Of a DNA stretch of 32,000 nucleotides, positions 4,237 through 15,133 are shown piece by piece (positions within the stretch are counted from its first letter, which is position 1; each line of letters opens with the position of its first letter). The position numbers and the translations under genes were made by a program. Under the pieces are notes generated by a model, which did not search any database, was not told where the DNA came from, and saw only the letters and a list, made by a program, of their open reading frames with translations. Origin of the DNA: Alphaproteobacteria bacterium (lineage in GTDB: Bacteria > Myxococcota_A > UBA796 > GCA-2862545); the NCBI GenBank assembly GCA_020632885.1, contig JACKEQ010000004.1, positions 73,361 to 105,360 of the forward strand, written 5' to 3'.

Positions 4237-6399
4237 ATGCGAGAGCTCGTCCTCGTCGGAGCCGGCCACACGCACGTCCAGGTGCTGAAGATGGCCGCCA
4301 TGGAGCCCCTCGACGCGCGGATCACGCTCGTCGTGGACGACCCCGTCGCGGTCTACAGCGGCATGGTCCCGGGGCTCGTCGCGGGTCGGTACGCGCCCCA
4401 CGAGCTGGAGATCGACGCCCGCCCCCTCGCGAAGCGCGCCGGGGTCAGGGTGATCCACGCCCGCGCCACGCGCGTCGACACGGAGGCACGCTGCATCCAC
4501 GTCGAGGGGCGCCCGCCCATCCGGTACGACGTGGCCAGCCTGAACATCGGGTCCACGGTGGCGGGGCTCGAGCTGGCAGGGGTCCGTGAGCACGCCGTGC
4601 CCACGCGGCCCATCCGCGTGCTGGTCGACGCCGTCGAGGCCCGCATGCAGGCCACCGGCCCCACGCCCGACGTCGTCATCGTGGGTGCGGGCGCGGGCGG
4701 CGTGGAGCTCGCGTTCTGTGTGGAACAGCGCCTGCGCGAGCTCGGTCGGGTGCCGCGCGTGACCCTCGCCCACCGGGGGGCCCATCCCCTCGAGGGCCAG
4801 CACACCCGGGTCCAGGGGCGCGTCGAGGACGCGGCCACACGGCGGGGCATCCGGCTCGCGCCGCACACCGAGGTCACGGCGGTCACGGCGACGTCCGTGG
4901 AGACGACGGCGGGCAGCCTGCCTTCCGACCTCACGGTCTGGGTGACGGGGGCCGCCGCGCACGGTGTCCTGCGTGACAGCGGGCTGCCGGTCGACGCGCG
5001 GGGGTTCGTGTTCGTGGGCGACGACCTGCGTGTGGAGGGCCATCCCGACCTGTTCGCCGCGGGAGACTGCGCGGTGCTGCGGAGCTGGCCGGGCATCCCG
5101 AAGGCGGGCGTGTACGCCGTGCGCGAGGGTCCCGTGCTCCTGGCGAACCTGCGGGCCCACCTCGCGGGCCGGCCGCTGGCGCCGTACCGTCCGCAGCGCG
5201 ACTTCTTCGGCATCCTCAACCTCGGCGACGGCACGGCCATCGGGACGAAGTGGGGCGTGGCCGTCGAGGGCGGCTGGGTGATGGAGCACAAGGACCGCAT
5301 CGACCGTCGGTTCATGCGGATGTTCCAGGTGCTCGAGCCCGACGGCAGGGTGGCCTCCGACTTCGACCGACCCATGAGCGCCATGGAGGGCGAGATGGTC
5401 TGCGGGGGCTGTGCCGCCAAGGTCGCTGCACGCCCCCTGCAGCGGGCCCTCTCGCGTCTCCCGCCCGTGGTGGACCCCGACGTGGCGGTGGGTCCCGAGG
5501 ACGCCGACGACGTCGTGGCGTGGCGGGACGGCGGACGGCTCGTGGTGCAGAACGTGGACGCCTTCAGCGCCTTCACGGACGACCCGTGGGTCGTGGGCCG
5601 CGTGGCCGCGCACAACGCGACGAGCGACGTGTGGGCGAAGGGTCTGGCGCCCCGGTTCGCCATGGCCACGGTGCAGATCCCGACGGACGACGACCACGAG
5701 GAGACGCTGTTCCAGGTCATGGCGGGCCTCAGAGCGAGCCTGGACCCCGAGGGCATCGCGCTGCTCGGGGGTCACACCACGCTGGGCGAGAAGCTCGTGG
5801 TGGGCCTGGTGGTCACGGCGATAGCGGACGAGCTGCCGTGGCGGAACCGGGGCGCGCGTCCTGGCGACACGCTCGTGCTGACGCGTCGCCTGGGGACCGG
5901 GGTCCTGTTCCACGCCGACATGGCGGGTCGGGCGCCCGGTCGGGCCGTGGACGCCGTGCTGAACACGATGCTGCGGGGCAACCGGCTCGCCTCGGAGCTG
6001 GCCCGTGGGCAGGCGGTGCACGCGTGCACGGACGTCACGGGCTTCGGGCTGGCGGGCCACCTGGCGGAGGTCGTGCGGGGCTCGGGCTGCGGCGCGGTGC
6101 TGGAGCTCGCGGCGCTGCCGGCCTTCCCCGCCGTGGAGGGGTTGCTGGCCCAGGGCGAGCGCTCGACCTTCCACGAGCAGAACCGGGAGCTCCTGAAGGT
6201 CGTGGCGGCGAAGGGGGACGCGGCACGCCACCCGCGCTTCGAGCTCCTGTTCGACCCGCAGACGGCCGGGGGTCTGCTGTTCGCGACGCCCGATCCAGAC
6301 GGGCTGATCGCCGCTCTGGAGGCGGGCGGCGACACGGCCTGGCGGATCGGGGTGTGCACGGAGCCCCACGAATCGGGCGCGGTGTTCGAGGTCGTCTGA
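4237..6399 (+). CDS. selD: Bifunctional FAD-dependent pyridine nucleotide-disulfide oxidoreductase / selenide, water dikinase (SelD) fusion
   Basis: The N-terminal half has VLVGAGHTH (Rossmann), VVIVGAGAGGVELA and FAAGDCAV. The C-terminal half starts MVCGGCAAKV (SelD Cys/Lys loop) and has DDPWVVGRVAAHNATSDVWAKG, LLGGHTT and ACTDVTGFGLAGHL (PurM/AIR-synthase-like fold). This matches the known N-terminal-to-SelD fusion family. Confidence 0.92.
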   Translation: MRELVLVGAGHTHVQVLKMAAMEPLDARITLVVDDPVAVYSGMVPGLVAGRYAPHELEIDARPLAKRAGVRVIHARATRVDTEARCIHVEGRPPIRYDVASLNIGSTVAGLELAGVREHAVPTRPIRVLVDAVEARMQATGPTPDVVIVGAGAGGVELAFCVEQRLRELGRVPRVTLAHRGAHPLEGQHTRVQGRVEDAATRRGIRLAPHTEVTAVTATSVETTAGSLPSDLTVWVTGAAAHGVLRDSGLPVDARGFVFVGDDLRVEGHPDLFAAGDCAVLRSWPGIPKAGVYAVREGPVLLANLRAHLAGRPLAPYRPQRDFFGILNLGDGTAIGTKWGVAVEGGWVMEHKDRIDRRFMRMFQVLEPDGRVASDFDRPMSAMEGEMVCGGCAAKVAARPLQRALSRLPPVVDPDVAVGPEDADDVVAWRDGGRLVVQNVDAFSAFTDDPWVVGRVAAHNATSDVWAKGLAPRFAMATVQIPTDDDHEETLFQVMAGLRASLDPEGIALLGGHTTLGEKLVVGLVVTAIADELPWRNRGARPGDTLVLTRRLGTGVLFHADMAGRAPGRAVDAVLNTMLRGNRLASELARGQAVHACTDVTGFGLAGHLAEVVRGSGCGAVLELAALPAFPAVEGLLAQGERSTFHEQNRELLKVVAAKGDAARHPRFELLFDPQTAGGLLFATPDPDGLIAALEAGGDTAWRIGVCTEPHESGAVFEVV

Positions 6400-6403
6400 C
6401 CCT

Positions 6404-6955
6404 TCACGCGTCCAGGAAGGCCGCGAGGGCCGACCGCAGATCGGCGACCCGGATCCGCTGTACCCACGCGAGCTCGTGTCCCGAGTCGTCCGAGAGCAAC
6501 ACGCGGTCGGGGTCGGCGGCGTGGCTCGCGATGAACCAGTCCACGTGGGTGCCCCACCGGCCGGTCTCGCCGCGGTCGGCCCGCGCCTGACGCCGTGCCG
6601 ACCGCCAAGCGGAGTCGTCGGGGTACGCGCGCCACAGCTCACGCGCATACCGGGTCGCCGCGAGCGCCTCGAAGGGCTCCAGCTCGCCACCCCCATTCAC
6701 GAAGGCGTCCATGCTCTCCCGGATCAAGTCGACATCGTAGCCGTGACCGTACGTGCGCCGATGGCGGAAAACGGACTCCGCGCTCACCAACCATGGCACC
6801 ACGAGCCGCAGGAGGGTCTGCCCGGCCTTCCGATTCACCTGCTCCAGCGGCTTCTGGAGGGCCTCGTACTGGCGCCGGACCATCGCATTGGTGTCGAGCA
6901 CCACCACAGTGGCTCGGCCCGCCCGCAGTCGGGCGCGGAGCTCATCCGAGGTCAT
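6404..6955 (-). CDS. PIN-domain (VapC-like) putative ribonuclease toxin
   Basis: The four acidic PIN positions appear in canonical context: VVVLDTNA (D21), LVSAESVF (E), HVDWFIASHA (D) and VLLSDDSG (D). The ATG at 6955 lies 14 nt inside the 3' end of the upstream ATPase gene. Confidence 0.8.
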   Translation of the reverse strand: MTSDELRARLRAGRATVVVLDTNAMVRRQYEALQKPLEQVNRKAGQTLLRLVVPWLVSAESVFRHRRTYGHGYDVDLIRESMDAFVNGGGELEPFEALAATRYARELWRAYPDDSAWRSARRQARADRGETGRWGTHVDWFIASHAADPDRVLLSDDSGHELAWVQRIRVADLRSALAAFLDA

Positions 6956-8147
6956 CGCCGTCCGCCGCGAACGGGAGCGGGTGCCGCTCTCGCCACCGAT
7001 CCTCCGAGAAGACGCGCAGCTCGCCGGGCTCGCCCCTCACGACGAAAACCCGCCCTCCCTCGGGCAGGCCGAGGTGCTCGCGCGCGAAGCCGTTGAACCG
7101 GAGCGCGCCCTCAGTGGACATGTAGGACTGCGGTGCGTCTGCGGGAGCCACGCCGGGGGCGAGGACCCCGGTGACATCGGAGGCCTCGCCGCCTGGACGC
7201 CGGGAGACCCGGAGACCTTCCGCGGTGCGCTCCAGATGGAAGAACGCGCCGCCCCGCTCGAAGACGGGCGAGTGGCTCGTGAGCAGGATCTGGGAGGGCC
7301 CGCGTGGGTCGGCCACGATGAAGTGCAGGGCCTCCGCGAGCCGCTCCTGCACGTCCATCCGCAGGTTGAGCTCGGGCTCTTCGATGGCGACGATGTCGGC
7401 GCCACACGTCAGCACGCGCCCGATGAGCGCCACGACCTGCTGCGCGCCGGAACCGAGCAGATAGGCGGGCAACCGACCGTCGGGGGTCTCCAGCACCACG
7501 AGCGCCCTGCCCTCTTCGCGGCGGTAGACGACGTTGATCTCCCGGCCGCCGAGGAGCTCGCGGAAGCGCGCCATCACGTCGCGGAAGAGGTCCATGCGCT
7601 GGATGGCCGCCGTCTCGAGGCTGTCGCGGGCATCGAACAGCGCCATGGCCACGTCGGCCGGGATCTGCCCGCGGTCGTGGGGGTCGCGGTTGCTGCCGCC
7701 GTCGCCGATCTCGGTGCGATCGACCTGGATGTGCTGGAACCGCGGAGAGTCCCGCAACGCCTCCCATGCTGCCCTGTCATGTCGGTCCGGGCGCGGCTGA
7801 ACGCGCACACCATCCCCTCCCCAGGTGACCTCCACCCTGGCAGGGACGGCCACGCCTTCCACGCCCAGCTCGAAGCGAGCGTGTCCGTGGCCACCCAAGG
7901 TGTAGAAGTCCCGAGGGTCCATCCTCACCACCGAAGCGAAGTTGCGGCGATCCAACTCGAGCGACCCGAGCTTGTCCTGTAAGAACAGCAGGTCGATAAG
8001 CCGAAGGCACGCGCCGATGGCCTCGACCACATTGGACTTCCCGACGTCGTTGGCTCCGTGGAGCACGACCACGCCGCCCATGCCCTCCAGGCGCACCTCG
8101 TCGACGAGGTTCTTGAAGCCCTGGACCGCGAATGTCTCGATGCGCAC
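6942..8147 (-). CDS. SMC/RecF/OLD-type ABC ATPase (AAA_21/AAA_15-like) with a C-terminal AbrB/SpoVT/MazE-like domain
   Basis: GTG start at 8147 with GGAGG 5 nt upstream. Motifs are Walker A VVLHGANDVGKSN, signature-like LLGSGAQQ, Walker B/D-loop DIVAIEEPELNL and H-loop LLTSHSP. No nuclease domain is present. The last about 58 aa (nt 6945-7118), STEGALRFNGFAREHLGLPEGGRVFVVRGEPGELRVF, resemble a swapped-hairpin AbrB-type domain and are followed by an acidic tail FAADGDDLG. Confidence 0.85.
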   Translation of the reverse strand: MRIETFAVQGFKNLVDEVRLEGMGGVVVLHGANDVGKSNVVEAIGACLRLIDLLFLQDKLGSLELDRRNFASVVRMDPRDFYTLGGHGHARFELGVEGVAVPARVEVTWGGDGVRVQPRPDRHDRAAWEALRDSPRFQHIQVDRTEIGDGGSNRDPHDRGQIPADVAMALFDARDSLETAAIQRMDLFRDVMARFRELLGGREINVVYRREEGRALVVLETPDGRLPAYLLGSGAQQVVALIGRVLTCGADIVAIEEPELNLRMDVQERLAEALHFIVADPRGPSQILLTSHSPVFERGGAFFHLERTAEGLRVSRRPGGEASDVTGVLAPGVAPADAPQSYMSTEGALRFNGFAREHLGLPEGGRVFVVRGEPGELRVFSEDRWRERHPLPFAADGDDLG

Positions 8148-8198: not shown

Positions 8199-9041
8199 CT
8201 ACGCCCACCCCGCCGGGATCCGCTCCAGGAGCCCGTCGCCGTACACGTCCAGCAGACCGAGCTCCGGCATGTGCACGTACCCGATGTGGCAACGGCACAC
8301 GTCGTTCGTGCACGGACGTGGCGCCGACAGCGCGTCCAGCCCGTCCACGTAGAGGTTCCCGAGGGGCGCGCCGATGAAGTGACACCGCCGGACCGTGCCC
8401 TCCCCGTCCACACTGAAGTGCGACTCCCCTCCCCGGCACGCCCGGTCCAGCGAGGGGTACACCCGGTTGTCGTCGAACCGCGGGTCCACCGCCCGGATCC
8501 GCGCGCGGTCGGCGTCCGCGTAGTAGTCCGCCTCGCGCTTGTACGCGTTCACCCAGACGTACGTGCTCCGCGGCAGGGCCGCCCGCAGGGCCTCGATGGC
8601 GTCCAGGTGCTCCAGCAGGCCCACCACGCCGACCGAGTGACGCACGCCGAGCGCCCGCAACCGCTCGCACTGCCGCAGGAACCGGTCCATCCCGACCTCG
8701 CCGGGATGCCAGGTGGCCCACAGCGCCACCGTGTCGAGGTCCGCCTCCTCCAGCCAGTCGAGCTTCATCGAGAGGTTCGTCTGCGCGGCGACCCGCCGCA
8801 CCCCGGGCGCCCGCGAGAGCCGCACCATCGCGTCCCGGTACCAGCTCCGGACCAGCGCCTCCCCCCAGGGCGTGAAGAGCACCCCGAGGTCGTCCTGGAC
8901 CTCCGCCCACTCCACGAACCGCGAGAGCCCCGCCCTGTCGGCCTCCAGGACCTCCGGTGGCTCCCAGGCCTTGGCGAACGGACAGTACGGACACGCGAAG
9001 TTGCAGCTCGACAGCGGACCCCGGTAGTGGATCGTCCTCAC
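8199..9041 (-). CDS. Radical SAM protein (STM4011-like), 280 aa
   Basis: CxxxCxxC motif SSCNFACPYCPF lies near the N-terminus, and there is a Cys-rich C-terminus (RRCHF, PCTNDVCRCHIGY). The GTG start at 9041 overlaps the upstream stop (GTGA, 9038-9041). The long N-terminal extension in track ORF 8199..10169 has shadow-type composition and overlaps the upstream gene. Confidence 0.85.
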   Translation of the reverse strand: MRTIHYRGPLSSCNFACPYCPFAKAWEPPEVLEADRAGLSRFVEWAEVQDDLGVLFTPWGEALVRSWYRDAMVRLSRAPGVRRVAAQTNLSMKLDWLEEADLDTVALWATWHPGEVGMDRFLRQCERLRALGVRHSVGVVGLLEHLDAIEALRAALPRSTYVWVNAYKREADYYADADRARIRAVDPRFDDNRVYPSLDRACRGGESHFSVDGEGTVRRCHFIGAPLGNLYVDGLDALSAPRPCTNDVCRCHIGYVHMPELGLLDVYGDGLLERIPAGWA

Positions 9042-10342
9042 CGCAGCTCCCAGGCGTCCATCCTGGCCTTCACGGCGTCCGAGTACAGCCAGGGCCCGAT
9101 GGCGTCCGACCAGGCCAGCCCCTCGGCCGTCAGCCGCAGCCGGCCGGGCAGCTCCTCCGCGAGCCCGTGCTCCACGAGGCCCCCGAGCTGCGGGAATCGC
9201 TCCCGCACGTCGCCGAAGGCCTCCGCGAAGGCCACCGTGTCGAGACCCTCGGCCTGCAGCAGCCCCTGGAGCAGGTAGCGGCGGGCGCGCTCGTCGAGGT
9301 CCAGCACGAAGCCCCAGTCGACCCGCGTGGGGTCGTCGCGGTCGAGCCACGCGTCCAGCTCGTCCAGGACGGCCCCTCCACCCACCGCGAAACGCGTGGC
9401 ATGGTGTACCCGGCGCGTGTAGCTGCGCGCCCCGGGCCCGAGGCCCACCATGCCGTCCGCCTGGCATTTGTAGGGCGTGTGCACGACCGGCGCCCAGGGC
9501 GCCCGGAACATCCGCATGGAGGTCTGCTCGTAGCCGCACGACACCAACAGATCCCGGCCGATCCGGTAGAGCTCCAGCCGGTCGTCGGGTGCGTCGTGGC
9601 CGCGCCGATCGAGGCCCGTGAGCGGACGGACGAACAGCGGGTAGAGGAAGATCTCCTCCGGACGCCACTCCAGCGCGGCCGTCAGGCTGTCGACCCACGT
9701 GGCGGGCGTCTGGCCCGCCAGGCCGTAGATGAGGTCGATGTTGAGCGTGGGCACCCGCGACGCCCGCAGCGCCTCGAGGGCCGTCTGCACCGTCATGCCG
9801 CGCTGGGTCCGCCCCATCGCGCGCGCCTCGCTGTCCACGAAGGACTGCACGCCCAGACTGGCCCGCGTCGTCCCCCGCCGCACGAGGAGGTCGGCCTTGC
9901 CCGGCGTCACGGTCTCCGGCGAGCACTCTACCGAGAGCGGCATGCTCCCGAGGGGCGCACCCATGGTGTGCCCGAGGACGTCGAACACCCGATCGAGCCC
10001 GCCCTCGTCGAGCCAGGTGGGCGTGCCGCCCCCGACGGCCCCGGTGACGAACCGCGCATCCGGCAGCACCTCGCGCACCCGCGTCGCCTGCCGGGCGAGC
10101 TGCTGGAGGTACCGCTCCTGCCGCTCGGGGGCCCCGCGCACCGTGGTGAACAGGTTGCAGAAGGAGCACCGCTGGAAGCAGAACGGCACGTGGGCGTACA
10201 GGAACAGCGAGGAGGTGTCCTCGCCCGCCCAGACGTCCTCGAGGGCGAGCGCCAGCTCCAGCGCGCGGTACGCCGTCTTGTGGGGGTAGGCATACGCGTA
10301 GCCCGCGTAGGGTCCGGTGCCGAAGAGCGCGCTGGGGTCCAT
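9038..10342 (-). CDS. HemN-like (oxygen-independent coproporphyrinogen oxidase family) radical SAM protein (STM4012-like)
   Basis: YAHVPFCFQRCSFCNLF (CxxxCxxC), GGGTPT, SLGVQSF, NIDLIYGLAGQT, and a HemN_C-like C-terminal region. Confidence 0.9.
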   Translation of the reverse strand: MDPSALFGTGPYAGYAYAYPHKTAYRALELALALEDVWAGEDTSSLFLYAHVPFCFQRCSFCNLFTTVRGAPERQERYLQQLARQATRVREVLPDARFVTGAVGGGTPTWLDEGGLDRVFDVLGHTMGAPLGSMPLSVECSPETVTPGKADLLVRRGTTRASLGVQSFVDSEARAMGRTQRGMTVQTALEALRASRVPTLNIDLIYGLAGQTPATWVDSLTAALEWRPEEIFLYPLFVRPLTGLDRRGHDAPDDRLELYRIGRDLLVSCGYEQTSMRMFRAPWAPVVHTPYKCQADGMVGLGPGARSYTRRVHHATRFAVGGGAVLDELDAWLDRDDPTRVDWGFVLDLDERARRYLLQGLLQAEGLDTVAFAEAFGDVRERFPQLGGLVEHGLAEELPGRLRLTAEGLAWSDAIGPWLYSDAVKARMDAWELR

Positions 10343-10350
10343 GCCCGCCG

Positions 10351-11151
10351 TTATCCCAACGACGCCACGGGCACGCTGGCGAGCCGCACCATCAGCGTCT
10401 CGCCCGCCCGGTACACCTCGAAGACCCGCACCGCACCGAGCGTCCCCGCCAGCGCCGGGCCCGTCAGCTCGGGCTCGAGCCCATCCAGGGGCTCGCCGTC
10501 GACCGTCAGCAGCACGTCACCCGCCAGGAGACGCCCTGCCGCCGGCCCTCCCGGGTGCACGGCGAGCACCTCCACCCCGCCCGCGACAGGCTGGATGCGC
10601 AGCCCGAGCGTGGGTCGGTCGTCCACGTCGTCCACGGGCTCCCGGGTGCCTCCACCGACCATCACGAGCGGCGAGGCCTCCCGGCGCACCGGGCGGAAGG
10701 AAGCCCGCGCGTCGGCCCGGTAGCCGAGCACGGCCGGCTGGAGCACCCCGAGAAGCTCGAGGGCCGCAGGCCCCCAGAGCGTCTCGAACCCGGCCCCCCA
10801 GGTCCCGACGGCCTTCTCGACGTCGCCGGCGTCGTGCTGCTCCAGACCCGCCCAGAGCTGCTGGAACACGACCTCGACCGTCTGGGAGGCCTGCATGGGC
10901 ACGGGTCCGTCGTCCGTCTCGCGCCAGTAGGCCTCGTAGGCCCCGAGCCCGGGCCAGTCGACGAGCATCGGGGACGCCAGACCCGGCGCGCGTCCCGGGA
11001 GCACCGGCAGGGCCGCCGCGCTGGCGACGACCAGCCCGAGACCGCGGTAGGTCGCGGTGATGCGCTCGTCGAGGGGGAGCGTGTGGGCATCCAGCCAGAG
11101 CCCGCAGAGGTCGCGGACCAGGTGGGCGAACAGGGCGGCGGTGTCGCTCAC
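10351..11151 (-). CDS. Hypothetical protein with a C-terminal PDZ domain
   Basis: The C-terminus LGLRIQPVAGGVEVLAVHPGGPAAGRLLAGDVLLTVDGEPL has the PDZ pattern. The N-terminal about 150 aa is unrecognised. The GTG start overlaps the upstream stop (GTGA at 11148-11151). Confidence 0.8.
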   Translation of the reverse strand: MSDTAALFAHLVRDLCGLWLDAHTLPLDERITATYRGLGLVVASAAALPVLPGRAPGLASPMLVDWPGLGAYEAYWRETDDGPVPMQASQTVEVVFQQLWAGLEQHDAGDVEKAVGTWGAGFETLWGPAALELLGVLQPAVLGYRADARASFRPVRREASPLVMVGGGTREPVDDVDDRPTLGLRIQPVAGGVEVLAVHPGGPAAGRLLAGDVLLTVDGEPLDGLEPELTGPALAGTLGAVRVFEVYRAGETLMVRLASVPVASLG

Positions 11152-11921
11152 AGGGTGAACCTCGCCCAGGGCACGGTGAGGACGTGCGGGTGGGCGACAC
11201 GGTGCCCGACGTGCCCGCCCTCGCCGTAGAGGGTGCCATGGTCGCTCGTCACCATGACCTCGGTGGGCCCGCGGGCCGCGAAGGCCGCGAACAACGGCGC
11301 CAGCGCGCCGTCCACGTAGCGGAGGGCGGCCCGGTGGGTCGCCAGCGAGTCCGTCTCCGCGCCGTCCACGTAGTGCCGGTTGGGCTGGTGGATGGCGCTG
11401 ACGTTCACGAAGGCGAGCACGCGACCGTCGAGCTCCGCGAGGCGCCCGACGAGCCAGGCCACCTGGTGCTCCGTGCTGTGGGGGTCGGTGACCCCGAAGC
11501 CCGTCTCCCAGCGGGACTCTGCGAAGAGCCCGGGAAGCACGGTGCCGAGGGGGGTGGCGGGGTTGAAGAAGCCCGTGCCCCCGACACAGATCGTGTGGTA
11601 GCCCGCATCCGCGAAGCCCCGCACGATGTCCGGCGCGTCGAACACCGTGGTGTGGGGCCCGATGGTCTCGGACCCGCCGAAGGCCACGGCGAGCTCGCGG
11701 ATGTGGGGACCCGGCGTGACCGGCGTGGGGAGGAACCCCGCGAAGAACGCGGCGTGGGCGGCGTAGGTGAAGGTCGCCGGAGAGTGGCGCTCCTCCCAGG
11801 CGTCCACGTACCGCGAGAGCACGGGCAGCTCGCCCGCCTCGAGCGCCGCGACGGCCACGTCGTACCTCAGGGTGTCGAGGGTGACGAAGAGCACGTCGTG
11901 GCGTCCGAGGACGGACCTCAC
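11148..11921 (-). CDS. Alkaline-phosphatase/sulfatase-superfamily hydrolase (STM4013-like)
   Basis: DVLFVTLDTLRYD is the metal-binding Asp plus nucleophile Thr motif. VMVTSDHGTLYGEGGHVGH is the C-terminal metal site. The GTG start at 11921 overlaps the upstream stop (GTGA 11918-11921). The upstream extension of the track ORF has shadow-type composition. Confidence 0.8.
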   Translation of the reverse strand: MRSVLGRHDVLFVTLDTLRYDVAVAALEAGELPVLSRYVDAWEERHSPATFTYAAHAAFFAGFLPTPVTPGPHIRELAVAFGGSETIGPHTTVFDAPDIVRGFADAGYHTICVGGTGFFNPATPLGTVLPGLFAESRWETGFGVTDPHSTEHQVAWLVGRLAELDGRVLAFVNVSAIHQPNRHYVDGAETDSLATHRAALRYVDGALAPLFAAFAARGPTEVMVTSDHGTLYGEGGHVGHRVAHPHVLTVPWARFTL

Positions 11922-13306
11922 TCGCTGACGCTCGTGTAGAACCAGTCCCGGTCCCGCTTCTGGTCGCCCGCGACCAGCGTGCCCGCGAAGGCGACGCGCA
12001 GCGCAGACACGGTCTCGTCGGACAAGAAGCTCTCCGAGACGTCCAGCTCCTCGAGGTGGGCCAGAGCCGGCAGGATGCCGAGGAGCGTCTGGGCGCCCTC
12101 GTCCGTGAGGATGCCCATGGACAGGTCGAGGTGCGTGAGCTGACGGATCAGCGGCCCGCCGGCGAGCACACCCACGATGTCGTTCGTGAAGCTCGCGTTC
12201 TTCAGGCCGAGGCGCTTCACGGCCGGCAGACCCGCGGTGTTGGCGAGGATCCCGGCGACGTGCTCGGCGCTGCACGACCCGCCGTAGTCGTCGGTGCCGA
12301 ACCACACCTCGAGCTCCTCGAGCGCCGGGTAGCTGCCCTTCGCGAGCTGCTCGGCCGGCTGGGTCGGCAGCCCGCCGGTCTCCAGCTTCAGGCGCTTCAG
12401 CTTCGGCGCCACCAGCGCCCCGAGGGCGATGTCGCCGCCCGTGATGGTGAGATCCTCGAGGTTGGGGAGGATGGGCCCCAGGGGCTCCACGGAGGTGTGG
12501 TAGGTCCAGGAGATCTCGGTGTCGTCGGGGTACTCGAAGGCCCCGAGGTGCAGCCGGCGCAGCGAAGGCCGGCGGCCCTGCTTCACGAGGAGCTTCACGG
12601 CGTCCTCGAACATGGCCTCCCCGTCGATCTCGAGGAGGCCGACCTCCAGCTCACGAAGGAACTGCGCGGACGGGTGCCGGAGCACGGCGCTGTAGAGCTT
12701 CTTGAGGTCGAGCTCCTCGACGTCCCAGTTGCCAGCGACCTTGACCCGCCGCCAGAACCCGTTCTCCCAGTCGATCTCGACGGCCTCGGCCTCGTCGCGA
12801 CCGGGCCGGACATCGCCGAAGAAGGCCGTGGCGTGCTTCTCGAGCAGCTCCTGCTCGCGGACCTTCAGCGGGCCCGGCGGCTCCGGCGCGGGTGCCGCCT
12901 CCCCACGGGGACGGGCTCGCACGCGCTCCTTCGGCTTGGTGACGGTCGCCCCGAGCTGCATCTGCACCGCCATGAGCTCACCGCGCGGGTCGCCAGCGGC
13001 CTGCAGGCTGTCGGCGAGCACGGACCACGCCTCGAGGTCGCCGGGATCGGACGTGATGCGCGCCACGATCTCCTCGTTGGGATCGGCCGTGCGCGCCTGG
13101 GCGGCGGCCTCGGCGTACCCCTTCTTCACCTTGGACGCGATGGCCGCGTCCGCCTTCTTCTGGGCCTCCTCGTGGCTCTTGAAGACCTTGGTGCTCGTCT
13201 GGCCGTCCGTGCCGGTACGACCGAAGCGGACGGTGTACGACTCCCCCTCCACCACGATCTCCCAGAACTTGTCGGACTTCCCGTCGCTGAACTCGAACCG
13301 CCGCAT
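11918..13306 (-). CDS. WGR domain / TIGR02996-like segment / leucine-rich repeat (RNI-like) protein (STM4015-like)
   Basis: N-terminus RRFEFSDGKSDKFWEIVVEGESYTVRFGRTGTDGQTSTK..KKGY is a WGR domain. LEAWSVLADSLQAAGDPRGELMAVQMQL is the myxobacterial/planctomycete repeat-companion motif. The C-terminal half has LRR-like units (LKRLKLETGGL, LEELEVW, VKRLGLKNASF, LTHLDLSMGIL, LEELDVSESFL). GGAGG lies 4 nt upstream of ATG 13306. Confidence 0.9.
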   Translation of the reverse strand: MRRFEFSDGKSDKFWEIVVEGESYTVRFGRTGTDGQTSTKVFKSHEEAQKKADAAIASKVKKGYAEAAAQARTADPNEEIVARITSDPGDLEAWSVLADSLQAAGDPRGELMAVQMQLGATVTKPKERVRARPRGEAAPAPEPPGPLKVREQELLEKHATAFFGDVRPGRDEAEAVEIDWENGFWRRVKVAGNWDVEELDLKKLYSAVLRHPSAQFLRELEVGLLEIDGEAMFEDAVKLLVKQGRRPSLRRLHLGAFEYPDDTEISWTYHTSVEPLGPILPNLEDLTITGGDIALGALVAPKLKRLKLETGGLPTQPAEQLAKGSYPALEELEVWFGTDDYGGSCSAEHVAGILANTAGLPAVKRLGLKNASFTNDIVGVLAGGPLIRQLTHLDLSMGILTDEGAQTLLGILPALAHLEELDVSESFLSDETVSALRVAFAGTLVAGDQKRDRDWFYTSVSE

Positions 13307-13336: not shown

Positions 13337-15133
13337 TCAGTCGCCGTCCCGGACGATGACGGTGAAGGTGACCTGCCGGAGGGGTCCGACCCCCGCGAGA
13401 CCCTCGCCTGCACCGACCACCTGGAGCCGATCCCGCGCGATCCCCCGCTCCACCAGGGCCGCGGCGACCCCCTCGGCGCGGCGCACGGACAGCGCGTAGT
13501 TGTAGGCGGACGGGCCCTCGGAGTCGGCGTGCCCCTCGACCCGCAGCAGCCGGACCTCCCCGTGCTCGGCCATCCAGGCGGCGATCGCGTCGAGCGTCCC
13601 GGTCTCCTCCAGCGTGTCGCGGTCGTGCGCGAAGAGCGGCGTGCCCGTGGTGACGAGCTGGTTGCCCTCGAGGTGCACGGCGTCGGGCTCGAGCACGACG
13701 TCCACCTCGGCCACCTCGTCGATCGGGACCTCCACGGTCCGGACGTGCGTTCCGAAGCCCTCGGCCGCCACGCGCACCGTGACGTCGCCGACCTCGCGCT
13801 CCATGCGGACCTCTCCGCCTTCGGGGGGCACGTGCTCACCCTCGATCTCGACCACGACCCCGGGGACGACGGATCCGTCGGGCCCACGCACACGCACGAC
13901 CAGCGTGCCGATGCGCCGGGCCTCCAGCGTCACCACGGAGCGCATCGTGCGCCCCTCGAGCAGGAAGGCGCCCACCCCGCTCGGCACGAACCCCTCGGCC
14001 TCCACGACGACCGCGTGCTCCCCCGCCCCTCCGGCGTACGTCCACACCTCGCCGCCCAGGCCGTGGAAGGCATCCCCGTCGTGGCGGAGGGTCCAGCTGT
14101 CGGGTCCGCGCACCTCCACGCGCCACCCCGCCGTGACGTCCGGGCAACCGTCGTCGTCCCGGTAGCCGTTCACCGTCTCGGGCACGTTCGGGCACACGTC
14201 GTCGACGTCGGACAGGCCGTCCCCATCGTTGTCGGGGTCGGGGCATCCATCGCGGTCCTGGTGGCCGTCGAGGTCCTCGGGCGCGCGGGGACAGCGGTCC
14301 TGCGGCCCGACCCGCCCGTCTCCATCGTGGTCCTCGGGACCCGGCACCACGAACGACAGGTCCAGCAGCAGCCTGCTCGCGGGGGTGCCCAGCCCATCCG
14401 TGAGCCCGACTCCCACGCCACCCCGCAGGTGGATCCCGCGGCGCAGGCGACCCCGCGCCGTCGCCAGGGCCTCGAGGGGCACGAGCCGGCTGGTGACGGG
14501 CTGACCCAGCGGGAAGGCCCCGAAGAGCTCGAGGGCCCCACGAAGCCCGGGGTACAGGTCGCCGCCATAGCCCACGGCACCCTCGAGGCGGGCGCCGAGC
14601 ACGGTGCCCCCGACGTCCTGATCGGGCTGCACGCGCGCCAGGATTTGCCCGCCGAGGCCGCCCGTGCGGAGGGTGAGCCCACCTGTCACCGCGTGGGTGG
14701 AGAAGGGCTGGGGGGCCGAGGCATTGCCGCGCTCCAGCTCGGCCACGAGCGCCACGGGCATGCCAGGAGACCCGATCCGCGCGAAGAGCAGCACGTCGCC
14801 GGGCCCGACGAGCGTGTCGTCGGCGTACCGGGCCACGTGCACCGGGAGGAGCACACCGAACCGGAGGTACTCACCGGTGGCGAGCGACGCCCCCAGCCTC
14901 GCGGTGACGAGGTCGCGGACGTAGGGCGTGCGGGTGCCGTCGGCGCTGCGGAGGACCAGCGGCGCGAACTGCGCATCGTTCGCGAGGAACACCCGCGCGG
15001 ACCACGGATCACCCACGGTCGCCGGGCGCAGGCTCGTGAAGTCCTCGCCGAGGGGCTGGAGGGTCTGGACATCGGCAGCCCGAGCGGACCCCGCGAGCCC
15101 CATCCCCACCACCATCGCCGCGAGTGCCCGCAA
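13337..15133 (-). CDS. OmpA-family outer membrane protein with TSP3 (thrombospondin type 3) calcium-binding repeats
   Basis: Signal peptide MRALAAMVVGMGLAGSARA, then a beta-barrel-like N-terminal half. Repeats DHDGDGRVGPQDRCP, DRDGCPDPDNDGDGLSDVDDVCP and DDDGCPD follow, then a CarboxypepD_reg-like segment. The C-terminus has the OmpA motif LLRVEGHADSEGPSAYNYALSVRRAEGV. Confidence 0.9.
   Translation of the reverse strand: MRALAAMVVGMGLAGSARAADVQTLQPLGEDFTSLRPATVGDPWSARVFLANDAQFAPLVLRSADGTRTPYVRDLVTARLGASLATGEYLRFGVLLPVHVARYADDTLVGPGDVLLFARIGSPGMPVALVAELERGNASAPQPFSTHAVTGGLTLRTGGLGGQILARVQPDQDVGGTVLGARLEGAVGYGGDLYPGLRGALELFGAFPLGQPVTSRLVPLEALATARGRLRRGIHLRGGVGVGLTDGLGTPASRLLLDLSFVVPGPEDHDGDGRVGPQDRCPRAPEDLDGHQDRDGCPDPDNDGDGLSDVDDVCPNVPETVNGYRDDDGCPDVTAGWRVEVRGPDSWTLRHDGDAFHGLGGEVWTYAGGAGEHAVVVEAEGFVPSGVGAFLLEGRTMRSVVTLEARRIGTLVVRVRGPDGSVVPGVVVEIEGEHVPPEGGEVRMEREVGDVTVRVAAEGFGTHVRTVEVPIDEVAEVDVVLEPDAVHLEGNQLVTTGTPLFAHDRDTLEETGTLDAIAAWMAEHGEVRLLRVEGHADSEGPSAYNYALSVRRAEGVAAALVERGIARDRLQVVGAGEGLAGVGPLRQVTFTVIVRDGD

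Follow-up and report, generated by a model that had tools for sequence, protein, structure and literature searches.

The genes STM4011 to STM4015, whose type locus lies in Salmonella Typhimurium LT2, encode five protein families (NF038073, NF006067, NF038075, NF038074 and NF038076, respectively) that NCBIfam already catalogues as hypothetical equivalogs, and they are among the more widespread radical S-adenosylmethionine (radical-SAM) gene sets without an assigned function. A full-text literature search aimed at the cassette or at this combination of genes found no functional study, and the literature on DUF5063, on amidoligase/ATP-grasp systems and on amino-group carrier proteins with radical-SAM enzymes contained nothing relevant. 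Among described systems, the ligases LysX and RimK extend a partner protein (LysW and ribosomal protein S6, respectively) by an amino acid joined to its C-terminal glutamate, and PDZ domains are modules that bind C-terminal peptides. The stretch analyzed here (the window) comprises 32,000 nt of a bacterial contig (JACKEQ010000004.1, positions 73,361 to 105,360), and positions 8199–13306 on its minus strand hold five genes that encode, in order of transcription, a leucine-rich repeat (LRR) protein with a WGR domain, a predicted hydrolase resembling nucleotide pyrophosphatase/phosphodiesterases (NPPs), a PDZ protein and two radical-SAM enzymes. The cluster is an intact, lineage-specific variant of the STM4011–STM4015 cassette; new in it are the fusion of STM4015 to a WGR domain, the lack of an ATP-grasp gene and the presence of a DUF5063–PDZ adaptor. 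We hypothesize, with a probability of roughly 45%, that the C-terminal tail of the LRR protein is the working end of the cassette, handed to the two radical-SAM enzymes and the NPP-like phosphoesterase with the participation of either STM4014 or the PDZ protein.

The LRR gene (11918–13306, minus strand) encodes a 462-aa protein in which a WGR domain (Pfam, aa 3–68, E = 6.9e-17) and a helical segment resembling TIGR02996 (aa 78–118; 20.2 bits, below the cut-off of 29) precede an RNI-type LRR domain. The NCBIfam STM4015 model covers aa 197–458 over model positions 15–286 of 290 and scores 192.9 bits, which is below its curated cut-off of 275 bits; the protein is probably a divergent STM4015 core with an added N-terminal WGR domain. 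AlphaFold2 (AF2) modeling gave a predicted local distance difference test (pLDDT) score of 94.9 and a predicted template modeling score (pTM) of 0.91, and the best solved match is 2RA8, the Bacteroides fragilis protein Q64V53 (E = 5e-41; Foldseek E = 3e-22), for which no function or publication was found. The WGR domain is optional, being absent from most STM4015 proteins, that of Salmonella included.

The protein of the window ends in DWFYTSVSE, and its last eight residues (W-F-Y-T-S-V-S-E, aa 455–462, positions 11921–11944, minus strand) follow a short charged linker. The same arrangement recurs in more than 210 STM4015-type proteins from more than ten phyla, in which an acidic linker leads to a conserved tail that terminates, with few exceptions, in Glu: 95 of the 97 cluster-adjacent STM4015 copies end in this residue, as do 117 of the 120 WGR-LRR homologues, which display the same tail pattern. 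The consensus reads W-R-Y-V-A-V-[SAG]-E, with Val and Thr alternating after the Tyr. Counted from the terminal Glu, Arg occupies position −6 in 86 of 95 tails, Tyr or Phe position −5 in 91, Val position −2 in 86, and a small residue or Thr position −1 in all 95. The last eight alignment columns carry 3.13 bits per column, compared with 1.7 for the linker just before them; the linker itself is 14–26 aa long and 36% Asp/Glu, and such a variable acidic segment has the appearance that would be expected ahead of a tethered tail. The terminal Glu is kept even where the remainder differs, since the divergent Salmonella STM4015 ends in AMYTE and the Bacteroides proteins, including 2RA8, end in PMITE. 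Tandem STM4015 paralogues, of which Actinomycetota have two or three per locus, all retain the tail, a pattern reminiscent of multiple precursor genes, and the tightly packed cassette genes leave no room between them for a small separate precursor gene. Conservation of the LRR domain is about equal to that of the tail, and the domain is not variable. The original prediction for this locus did not mention the tail, and, as far as could be found, neither its conservation nor the alternation of ligase and PDZ protein described below has been reported before. A second motif, L-D-L-H-H-H-[YF]-L, is located about 35 residues before the C-terminus of standard STM4015 proteins (His in 85% of them at the column checked) and could be a metal site; it has been lost from the WGR-type proteins, among them that of the window, which has L-D-V-S-E-S-F-L (alignment positions at aa 423–426, about 12029–12040).

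A one-genome-per-species collection contains at least 595 stretches that encode a relative of STM4011, and a protein collection holds more than 5000 clusters of STM4011 proteins. In the best 80 of these 595 stretches, which were compared by tblastn, the recurrent gene order is [1–3 × STM4015]–STM4014–STM4013–STM4012–STM4011. The gene of about 1.1–1.4 kb between STM4015 and STM4013 in standard loci is STM4014, usually encoded directly after STM4015. Its products match NF038074 at 280–406 bits (cut-off 175) and are ATP-grasp proteins of the RimK/YheCD type; by profile, their best solved relatives are LysX/ArgX (1UC8, 3VPD) and RimK (4IWX, 5ZCT), with weaker matches to MptN and CofF. The ATP-grasp gene was found relocated beside the cluster in seven loci (L001, L035, L045, L057, L058, L070 and L078). 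The order in the window is STM4015–STM4013–PDZ–STM4012–STM4011, with the coupling between genes retained, and STM4014 was not detected there: NF038074 matches none of the seven window proteins scanned, and tblastn with candidate STM4014 reading frames taken from the STM4015–STM4013 gap of other loci returned nothing real in the 32 kb. Nor did tblastn detect an ATP-grasp gene near ten PDZ-type clusters, up to 9 kb on each side.

The two genes exclude each other. Across 91 loci, STM4014 is present in 69 and the PDZ protein in 11, and no locus has both; the 11 loci with neither are mostly truncated contigs. The hypergeometric probability of zero overlap is 1.5e-8, uncorrected for relatedness, and since the PDZ loci form one clade, the exclusivity amounts to about a single evolutionary event. 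Whether the PDZ protein corresponds to STM4014 or replaces it had been left undecided in the original prediction. Its identity as a divergent STM4014 was rejected by profile–profile comparison (hhalign probability 0.3%). Being non-homologous to STM4014 and differently placed within the cluster, the PDZ protein replaces STM4014 and is not its counterpart.

The PDZ gene (10351–11151, minus strand) encodes 266 aa and stands in the stead of STM4014. An N-terminal DUF5063-like helical domain (aa 1–152, 10696–11151) is followed by the PDZ domain (aa 180–256, 10384–10614). Pfam PDZ_2 matches at 29.6 bits, above its cut-off of 27, DUF5063 (PF16702) at 19.4 bits, below its cut-off of 27, and NCBIfam has no match to the protein. 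In the AF2 model, the N-terminal 152 residues are helical (pLDDT 85–94) and fit 3NRH (BF1032, a DUF5063 fold) with a Foldseek E-value of 2.4e-5 and a template modeling score of 0.68–0.71, normalized to the target. The PDZ domain itself is modeled with a pLDDT below 50, which is attributable to a shallow alignment of only seven homologues. In these seven closest homologues, R179 and the T-L-G-L-R loop (181–185) are invariant, and a related loop motif, L-G-V-R-F, is found in loci L088–L090; the protein is thus predicted to carry a PDZ domain with a hydrophobic-Gly-hydrophobic carboxylate-binding loop.

The PDZ protein is rare. A word-indexed search of 5.8 billion clustered sequences yielded seven full-length relatives, a search of 1.84 billion representatives yielded 30 relatives of the N-terminal domain, and tblastn found no match in any of the 80 loci. 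The gene sits between STM4013 and STM4012 in L083/84, L087, L088, L089 and L090, and in L081/82 order and orientation are scrambled with all five genes still together. In L085/86, what remains is the PDZ gene abutting a degenerate HemN-like gene without the Cys triad. The HemN-like protein of L085 (4250–5350) has 366 aa, is 36% identical to the STM4012 protein of the window and has lost CxxxCxxC; no cassette genes besides this pair were found on the contig, and L085 is a decayed cassette in which the PDZ/HemN-like pair survives. The tails also differ with the partner, Arg at position −6 occurring in none of the seven verified PDZ-type tails versus 86 of the 95 others (Fisher p = 6e-7, confounded by phylogeny).

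It is this alternation of two unrelated C-terminus-handling proteins, next to an LRR protein with a near-invariant terminal Glu on an acidic tether, that leads us to regard the tail as the working end. In the standard cassette, the STM4014 ATP-grasp ligase would act on the terminal Glu of the LRR protein, much as RimK acts on S6 and LysX on LysW. In the window, the PDZ domain would capture the tail (...DWFYTSVSE-COOH) and present it to the HemN-like enzyme, to whose gene the PDZ gene is always directly adjacent. The radical-SAM enzymes would then alter residues of the tail or something attached to it; speculatively, the candidate chemistries include an oxidative decarboxylation of the HemN type on a propionate side chain (Glu, for example), a methyl transfer, or a C–C or C–X cross-link involving the conserved Tyr. 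The NPP-like hydrolase would remove or process a phosphoester group, and the pathway would end with an LRR protein that is modified for good or with a small molecule assembled on the tail and then released. A more specific proposal, which we hold more tentatively, is that the STM4015-type LRR protein is a new large carrier or precursor whose Tyr...Glu tail, acted on by the ATP-grasp ligase or, in this lineage, held by the PDZ adaptor, is elaborated with the help of the two radical-SAM enzymes and the phosphoesterase into a previously unknown protein-bound cofactor or released metabolite.

Several observations weigh against assigning this role to the tail. AF2 gives the tail a pLDDT of about 85, that is, an ordered structure, so that, rather than being a free substrate, it may pack against the LRR body, either structurally or as an intramolecular ligand. 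The equally strong conservation of the LRR domain appears unlike that of a typical leader of ribosomally synthesized and post-translationally modified peptides (RiPPs), and classical PDZ ligands usually end in a hydrophobic residue, not in Glu. A phosphoesterase of the alkaline-phosphatase superfamily has no obvious role in peptide-tail chemistry, and together with a HAD phosphatase found in Salmonella and Bacteroides it suggests a phosphorylated small molecule. The exclusivity of STM4014 and the PDZ protein reflects one clade and roughly one event, and other parts of the PDZ-type genomes could harbor an ATP-grasp gene. The link between tail and enzymes is itself drawn from sequence and gene context.

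The three enzymes of the window are full members of the families to which the original prediction had assigned them, each exceeding its NCBIfam cut-off; the STM4015 assignment holds only in the weaker form of the divergent, sub-threshold homologue described above. The hydrolase (11148–11921, minus strand, 257 aa) matches the STM4013/SEN3800 family NF038075 over its full length at 353.1 bits (cut-off 250) and belongs to the alkaline-phosphatase superfamily. It carries the motifs DTLRYD and SDHG, and ten residues, D16, R19, D21, T52, H56, H178, D227, H228, H240 and H244, are conserved in at least 97% of 76 homologues; among these are the metal ligands D16, D227 and H228 and Thr52, the probable nucleophile. 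Its nearest solved relatives are the Xanthomonas nucleotide pyrophosphatase/phosphodiesterases 2GSN and 7N1S (E = 1e-6). Pfam Sulfatase scores 22.3 bits, below its cut-off of 25, and a search for the C/S-x-P-x-R formylglycine motif found none, the nucleophile region reading H-S-P-A-T-F-T-Y-A-A-H. STM4013 is accordingly predicted to be an NPP-like metallophosphoesterase with a conserved Thr and not a formylglycine sulfatase.

This hydrolase lends weight to a serious alternative, though one that we consider somewhat unlikely, in which the three enzymes serve the synthesis or salvage of a small phosphorylated metabolite that would be a sugar phosphate or derive from a nucleotide. The ATP-grasp protein would then add a glutamate-type residue, as CofF does for F420 and MptN for methanopterin, and the LRR protein would be a scaffold or regulator whose tail serves as a docking motif, comparable with the C-terminal tip of single-stranded DNA-binding protein (SSB), recruiting the enzymes or the PDZ adaptor. 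Besides the NPP-like relatives of STM4013 with their conserved Thr nucleophile, this account is favored by the weak matches of STM4014 to MptN and CofF, by the ordered tail in the AF2 model, and by the 50–60% identity of the enzymes across phyla, which is typical of fixed small-molecule chemistry. A HAD partner points the same way. In Salmonella (L091, 8840–9574), a gene for a Cof-type HAD-IIB hydrolase overlaps the end of STM4011 by 16 nt, and in Bacteroides finegoldii (L092, 7974–9539) STM4011 continues at its C-terminus into a HAD domain, giving a protein of 521 aa, a fusion that ties the cassette to phosphate-ester chemistry; the STM4013 remnants of the latter locus persist as a broken reading frame. 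The HAD partner is, however, restricted to the divergent Salmonella/Bacteroides branch, and the clustering of genes around the other 80 loci brought out no cross-phylum flanking family such as a HAD phosphatase. Moreover, the solved structures nearest to STM4014 are of enzymes that act at the C-termini of proteins, the terminal Glu beside a RimK/LysX-like ligase gene would have to be a coincidence, and the exchange of that ligase for a peptide-binding PDZ protein is hard to explain with a small-molecule substrate. The NPP-like hydrolase and the link to a HAD phosphatase leave room for the nucleotide-derived small molecule put forward in the original prediction, and a hybrid scheme, with a metabolite assembled on the tail and later released, would reconcile the small-molecule account with a tail that is the working end.

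The larger radical-SAM enzyme (9038–10342, minus strand, 434 aa) is HemN-like, of the class C type, and matches the STM4012 family NF006067 over its full length at 524.9 bits (cut-off 380). It contains CFQRCSFC, keeps C55, C59 and C62 as well as the GGGTP motif, and is recognized by Pfam as Radical_SAM plus HemN_C; its closest entries in the PDB are HemN (1OLT) and then the methyltransferase NocN. The smaller enzyme (8199–9041, minus strand, 280 aa) matches the STM4011 family NF038073 at 367.7 bits (cut-off 200) over model positions 2–278 of 278 and contains CNFACPYC. Its conserved Cys residues are C13, C17 and C20 together with C202, C220, C244, C249 and C251, and the C-terminal five-Cys region is a probable auxiliary Fe–S cluster site. 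Searches of the PDB with the single sequence and with a profile found no significant solved relative of STM4011, the sole structural hint being the C-terminal region of SkfB (E = 0.15, insignificant).

A housekeeping role would make the HemN-like protein a true coproporphyrinogen dehydrogenase or the heme chaperone HemW, and the small enzyme an anaerobic sulfatase-maturating enzyme (anSME) for the sulfatase-like hydrolase. Models of HemW, HemN and ChuW do match the former protein at E-values of 1e-31 to 1e-35, the Pfam Sulfatase model matches the hydrolase weakly, and radical-SAM maturases of sulfatases are known. Yet the scores for the heme families fall far below the curated cut-offs (HemW, 122 bits against 205.4; HemN, 107.9 against 324.95; ChuW/HutW, 112.3 against 400), and the protein passes that of STM4012. 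Salmonella has a separate hemN about 8 kb from its cassette, the window shows no heme-pathway neighbors, STM4013 has the conserved Thr and not the formylglycine motif, and STM4011 has no detectable similarity to anSME structures. We regard this as the least probable of the explanations considered; a membership of the HemN-like protein in HemN or HemW proper, which the original prediction had named as an outcome that would speak against its assignment, was not observed.

All five reading frames were found where the original prediction had placed them, with the motifs it quoted, and its description of how they are joined proved accurate. On the minus strand, GTGA at 11918–11921, 11148–11151 and 9038–9041 overlaps each stop codon with the next GTG start, and 8 nt separate the TAA of the PDZ gene from the ATG of the following gene; as read from these overlaps, the five genes are translationally coupled. 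The GTG starts are supported by two kinds of alignment, since the products match the NCBIfam models from residue 1–3 onward and line up with homologues at their N-termini. All residues conserved in at least 97% of the 73–82 homologues of the three enzymes are kept in the window copies, and the genes therefore look functional. The enzymes likewise look active, judging from the conserved radical-SAM Cys triads, auxiliary Cys residues, and metal and nucleophile residues of the alkaline-phosphatase superfamily. The transcription unit may exceed five genes, since an OmpA-family gene (13337–15133, minus strand) ends 30 nt upstream of the LRR gene, an ATPase gene begins 51 nt downstream of the cassette, both on the same strand, and there is no convincing terminator: a scan for promoters and terminators gave nothing above background and no convincing internal or flanking terminator. 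Rfam detected no RNA family in the window. The guanine-plus-cytosine (GC) content is uniform (0.70–0.75 across the window), and the cluster is thus not a compositional island.

Beyond the window, the cassette genes are conserved together across phyla, in agreement with the co-conservation that the original prediction had expected. The cassette was detected in more than ten phyla. The 80 loci are drawn from Actinomycetota, Myxococcota, Planctomycetota, Cyanobacteriota, Chloroflexota, Verrucomicrobiota, Deinococcota, Bacteroidota and Pseudomonadota. Carriers of the cassette include Salmonella, Streptomyces, Bacteroides, Akkermansia, cyanobacteria and planctomycetes, and it is also present on large plasmids; its phyletic distribution is patchy. 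STM4011 proteins from Actinomycetota, Planctomycetota, Cyanobacteriota, Deinococcota and Myxococcota are 50–60% identical to the copy in the window, those of Salmonella and Bacteroides only 30–32%. By these identities, the cassette comprises two deep branches, with the name-giving Salmonella copy in the divergent one. Megablast with the Salmonella cassette as query detected no copy in 5,426 complete E. coli genomes. All-against-all clustering of flanking reading frames in the 80 loci revealed no sixth gene conserved across phyla, a clustering made noisy by the many spurious reading frames that high-GC genomes yield. On the chromosome, the PDZ-type clusters keep the same neighbors (VTC, DUF4956, zinc-ribbon and OmpA genes), a conserved synteny that points to vertical descent within a Myxococcota-like clade. 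The NCBI labels of proteins with sequences identical to the window's are in conflict, one naming a metagenome-assembled Alphaproteobacteria bacterium (P0001) and the other a Myxococcales bacterium (P0128), although both refer to a single 529-kb contig; gene content and nearest relatives point to Myxococcota.

Some neighbors deserve mention. An OmpA-family gene adjoins the LRR gene in related PDZ-type loci (L081, L083) and, independently, in B. finegoldii (L092), and the porin gene ompL is the upstream neighbor in Salmonella (L091); no OmpA gene was seen beside most of the 80 loci, and the adjacency could be either a coincidence or a hint of an envelope link. Downstream of the cassette, a same-strand pair (6404–8147, minus strand) consists of a gene for a 401-aa AAA_21/AAA_15 ATPase (6942–8147), whose best PADLOC matches are AriA, GajA, PtuA and HEC-01A, and, overlapping it by 14 nt, a gene for a 183-aa protein (6404–6955) that has no family match and whose N-terminus, VVVLDTN..., resembles a PIN-type nuclease motif. 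From these features, the pair may be a toxin–antitoxin or defense pair. Further on, a plus-strand gene (4237–6399) encodes a 720-aa fusion of a pyridine-nucleotide-disulfide oxidoreductase (aa 4–298) and an AIR-synthase-related, SelD-like domain (aa 431–713).

The ATPase pair, situated 51 nt from the cassette and similar to AriA/GajA, is one of the grounds on which the cassette might be taken for an anti-phage or conflict system, in which the WGR-LRR protein would sense the nucleic acid or protein of an invader and radical-SAM effectors would make a toxic or chain-terminating nucleotide in the manner of viperin. LRR and WGR domains occur in immune sensors, a fold search with the LRR protein returns NLR-type LRR domains (E about 1e-5), a weak PADLOC match to WGR was recorded, and the patchy distribution and large-plasmid occurrence would fit such a system. 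We nevertheless consider this explanation very unlikely. The ATPase pair is absent from all other cassette loci. In a scan of seven window proteins, PADLOC-DB 2.0 assigned none of the five cassette proteins to a known or candidate defense system and returned only two marginal partial matches for them (WGR_XIII, 24 bits; PDC-M51A, 27 bits), with no match at all to the hydrolase, STM4011 and the PDZ protein. Strong conservation of the LRR domain, which is not diversifying, and the optional nature of the WGR domain are not sensor-like and do not support the nucleic-acid-sensing WGR-LRR protein placed at the core of the cassette in the original prediction. Chromosomal synteny in this clade and the uniform GC content also speak against defense, and matches in a phage collection were limited to two Salmonella records at about 32% identity, a 156-kb genome contig and a short unannotated record. 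The defense role that had been left open for this locus is unlikely by PADLOC, LRR conservation and synteny alike.

The near-invariant C-terminal Glu, the RimK/LysX-type fifth gene and its exchange for a PDZ protein in one lineage make the function of the cassette directly testable. If the tail is indeed the substrate, the cassette would represent a new class of protein-templated radical-SAM chemistry, and the PDZ variant would be a natural experiment on which step the ligase normally performs.

Compared with the Salmonella Typhimurium LT2 type cassette, the window has the same three enzymes in the same relative order (4015...4013...4012–4011), with start/stop overlaps and a Glu-tailed LRR protein, although its enzymes share only about 32% identity with their Salmonella counterparts. 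Unlike the standard cassette, it has no STM4014, and the DUF5063–PDZ gene is inserted between STM4013 and STM4012; unlike standard STM4015 proteins, its homologue falls below the family cut-off, has an N-terminal WGR and helical module and is without the H-H-H-[YF] motif. In overall architecture, the LRR protein resembles the structural-genomics target Q64V53_BACFR (2RA8) of B. fragilis, which likewise combines WGR with LRR and ends in a terminal-Glu tail (...ITE). The near-identical gene of B. finegoldii is annotated as STM4015-family and lies next to STM4014 and STM4011; unlike the window, the Bacteroides cassette is of the ATP-grasp type, and the B. finegoldii copy has the STM4011::HAD fusion.

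Similar to LysW–LysX/ArgX and RimK–S6, the standard cassette places a RimK/LysX-type ligase beside a protein whose acidic C-terminal segment finishes with Glu, as does that of LysW (EDWGE). In contrast to these systems, the tail bearer of the cassette is an LRR protein of 290–460 aa instead of a 55-aa zinc-ribbon or a ribosomal protein, the tailoring would be carried out by radical-SAM enzymes and a phosphoesterase, ligation onto the tail is putative, and the window has no ligase. RiPP and peptide-derived cofactor pathways in which radical-SAM enzymes act on a C-terminal core, such as those of PQQ (PqqA/PqqE), mycofactocin (MftA/MftC) and thiopeptides with class C methyltransferases such as NocN, differ in having a short leader, a PqqD-like recognition element and a protease, none of which is part of the cassette, where the "leader" would be the whole LRR domain. 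In common with these pathways, the cassette has a short C-terminal motif with conserved Tyr and Glu residues, tandem tail-bearing genes, and two radical-SAM enzymes, one with a Cys region for a probable auxiliary cluster and one that is HemN-like and has NocN as its second-best match in the PDB.

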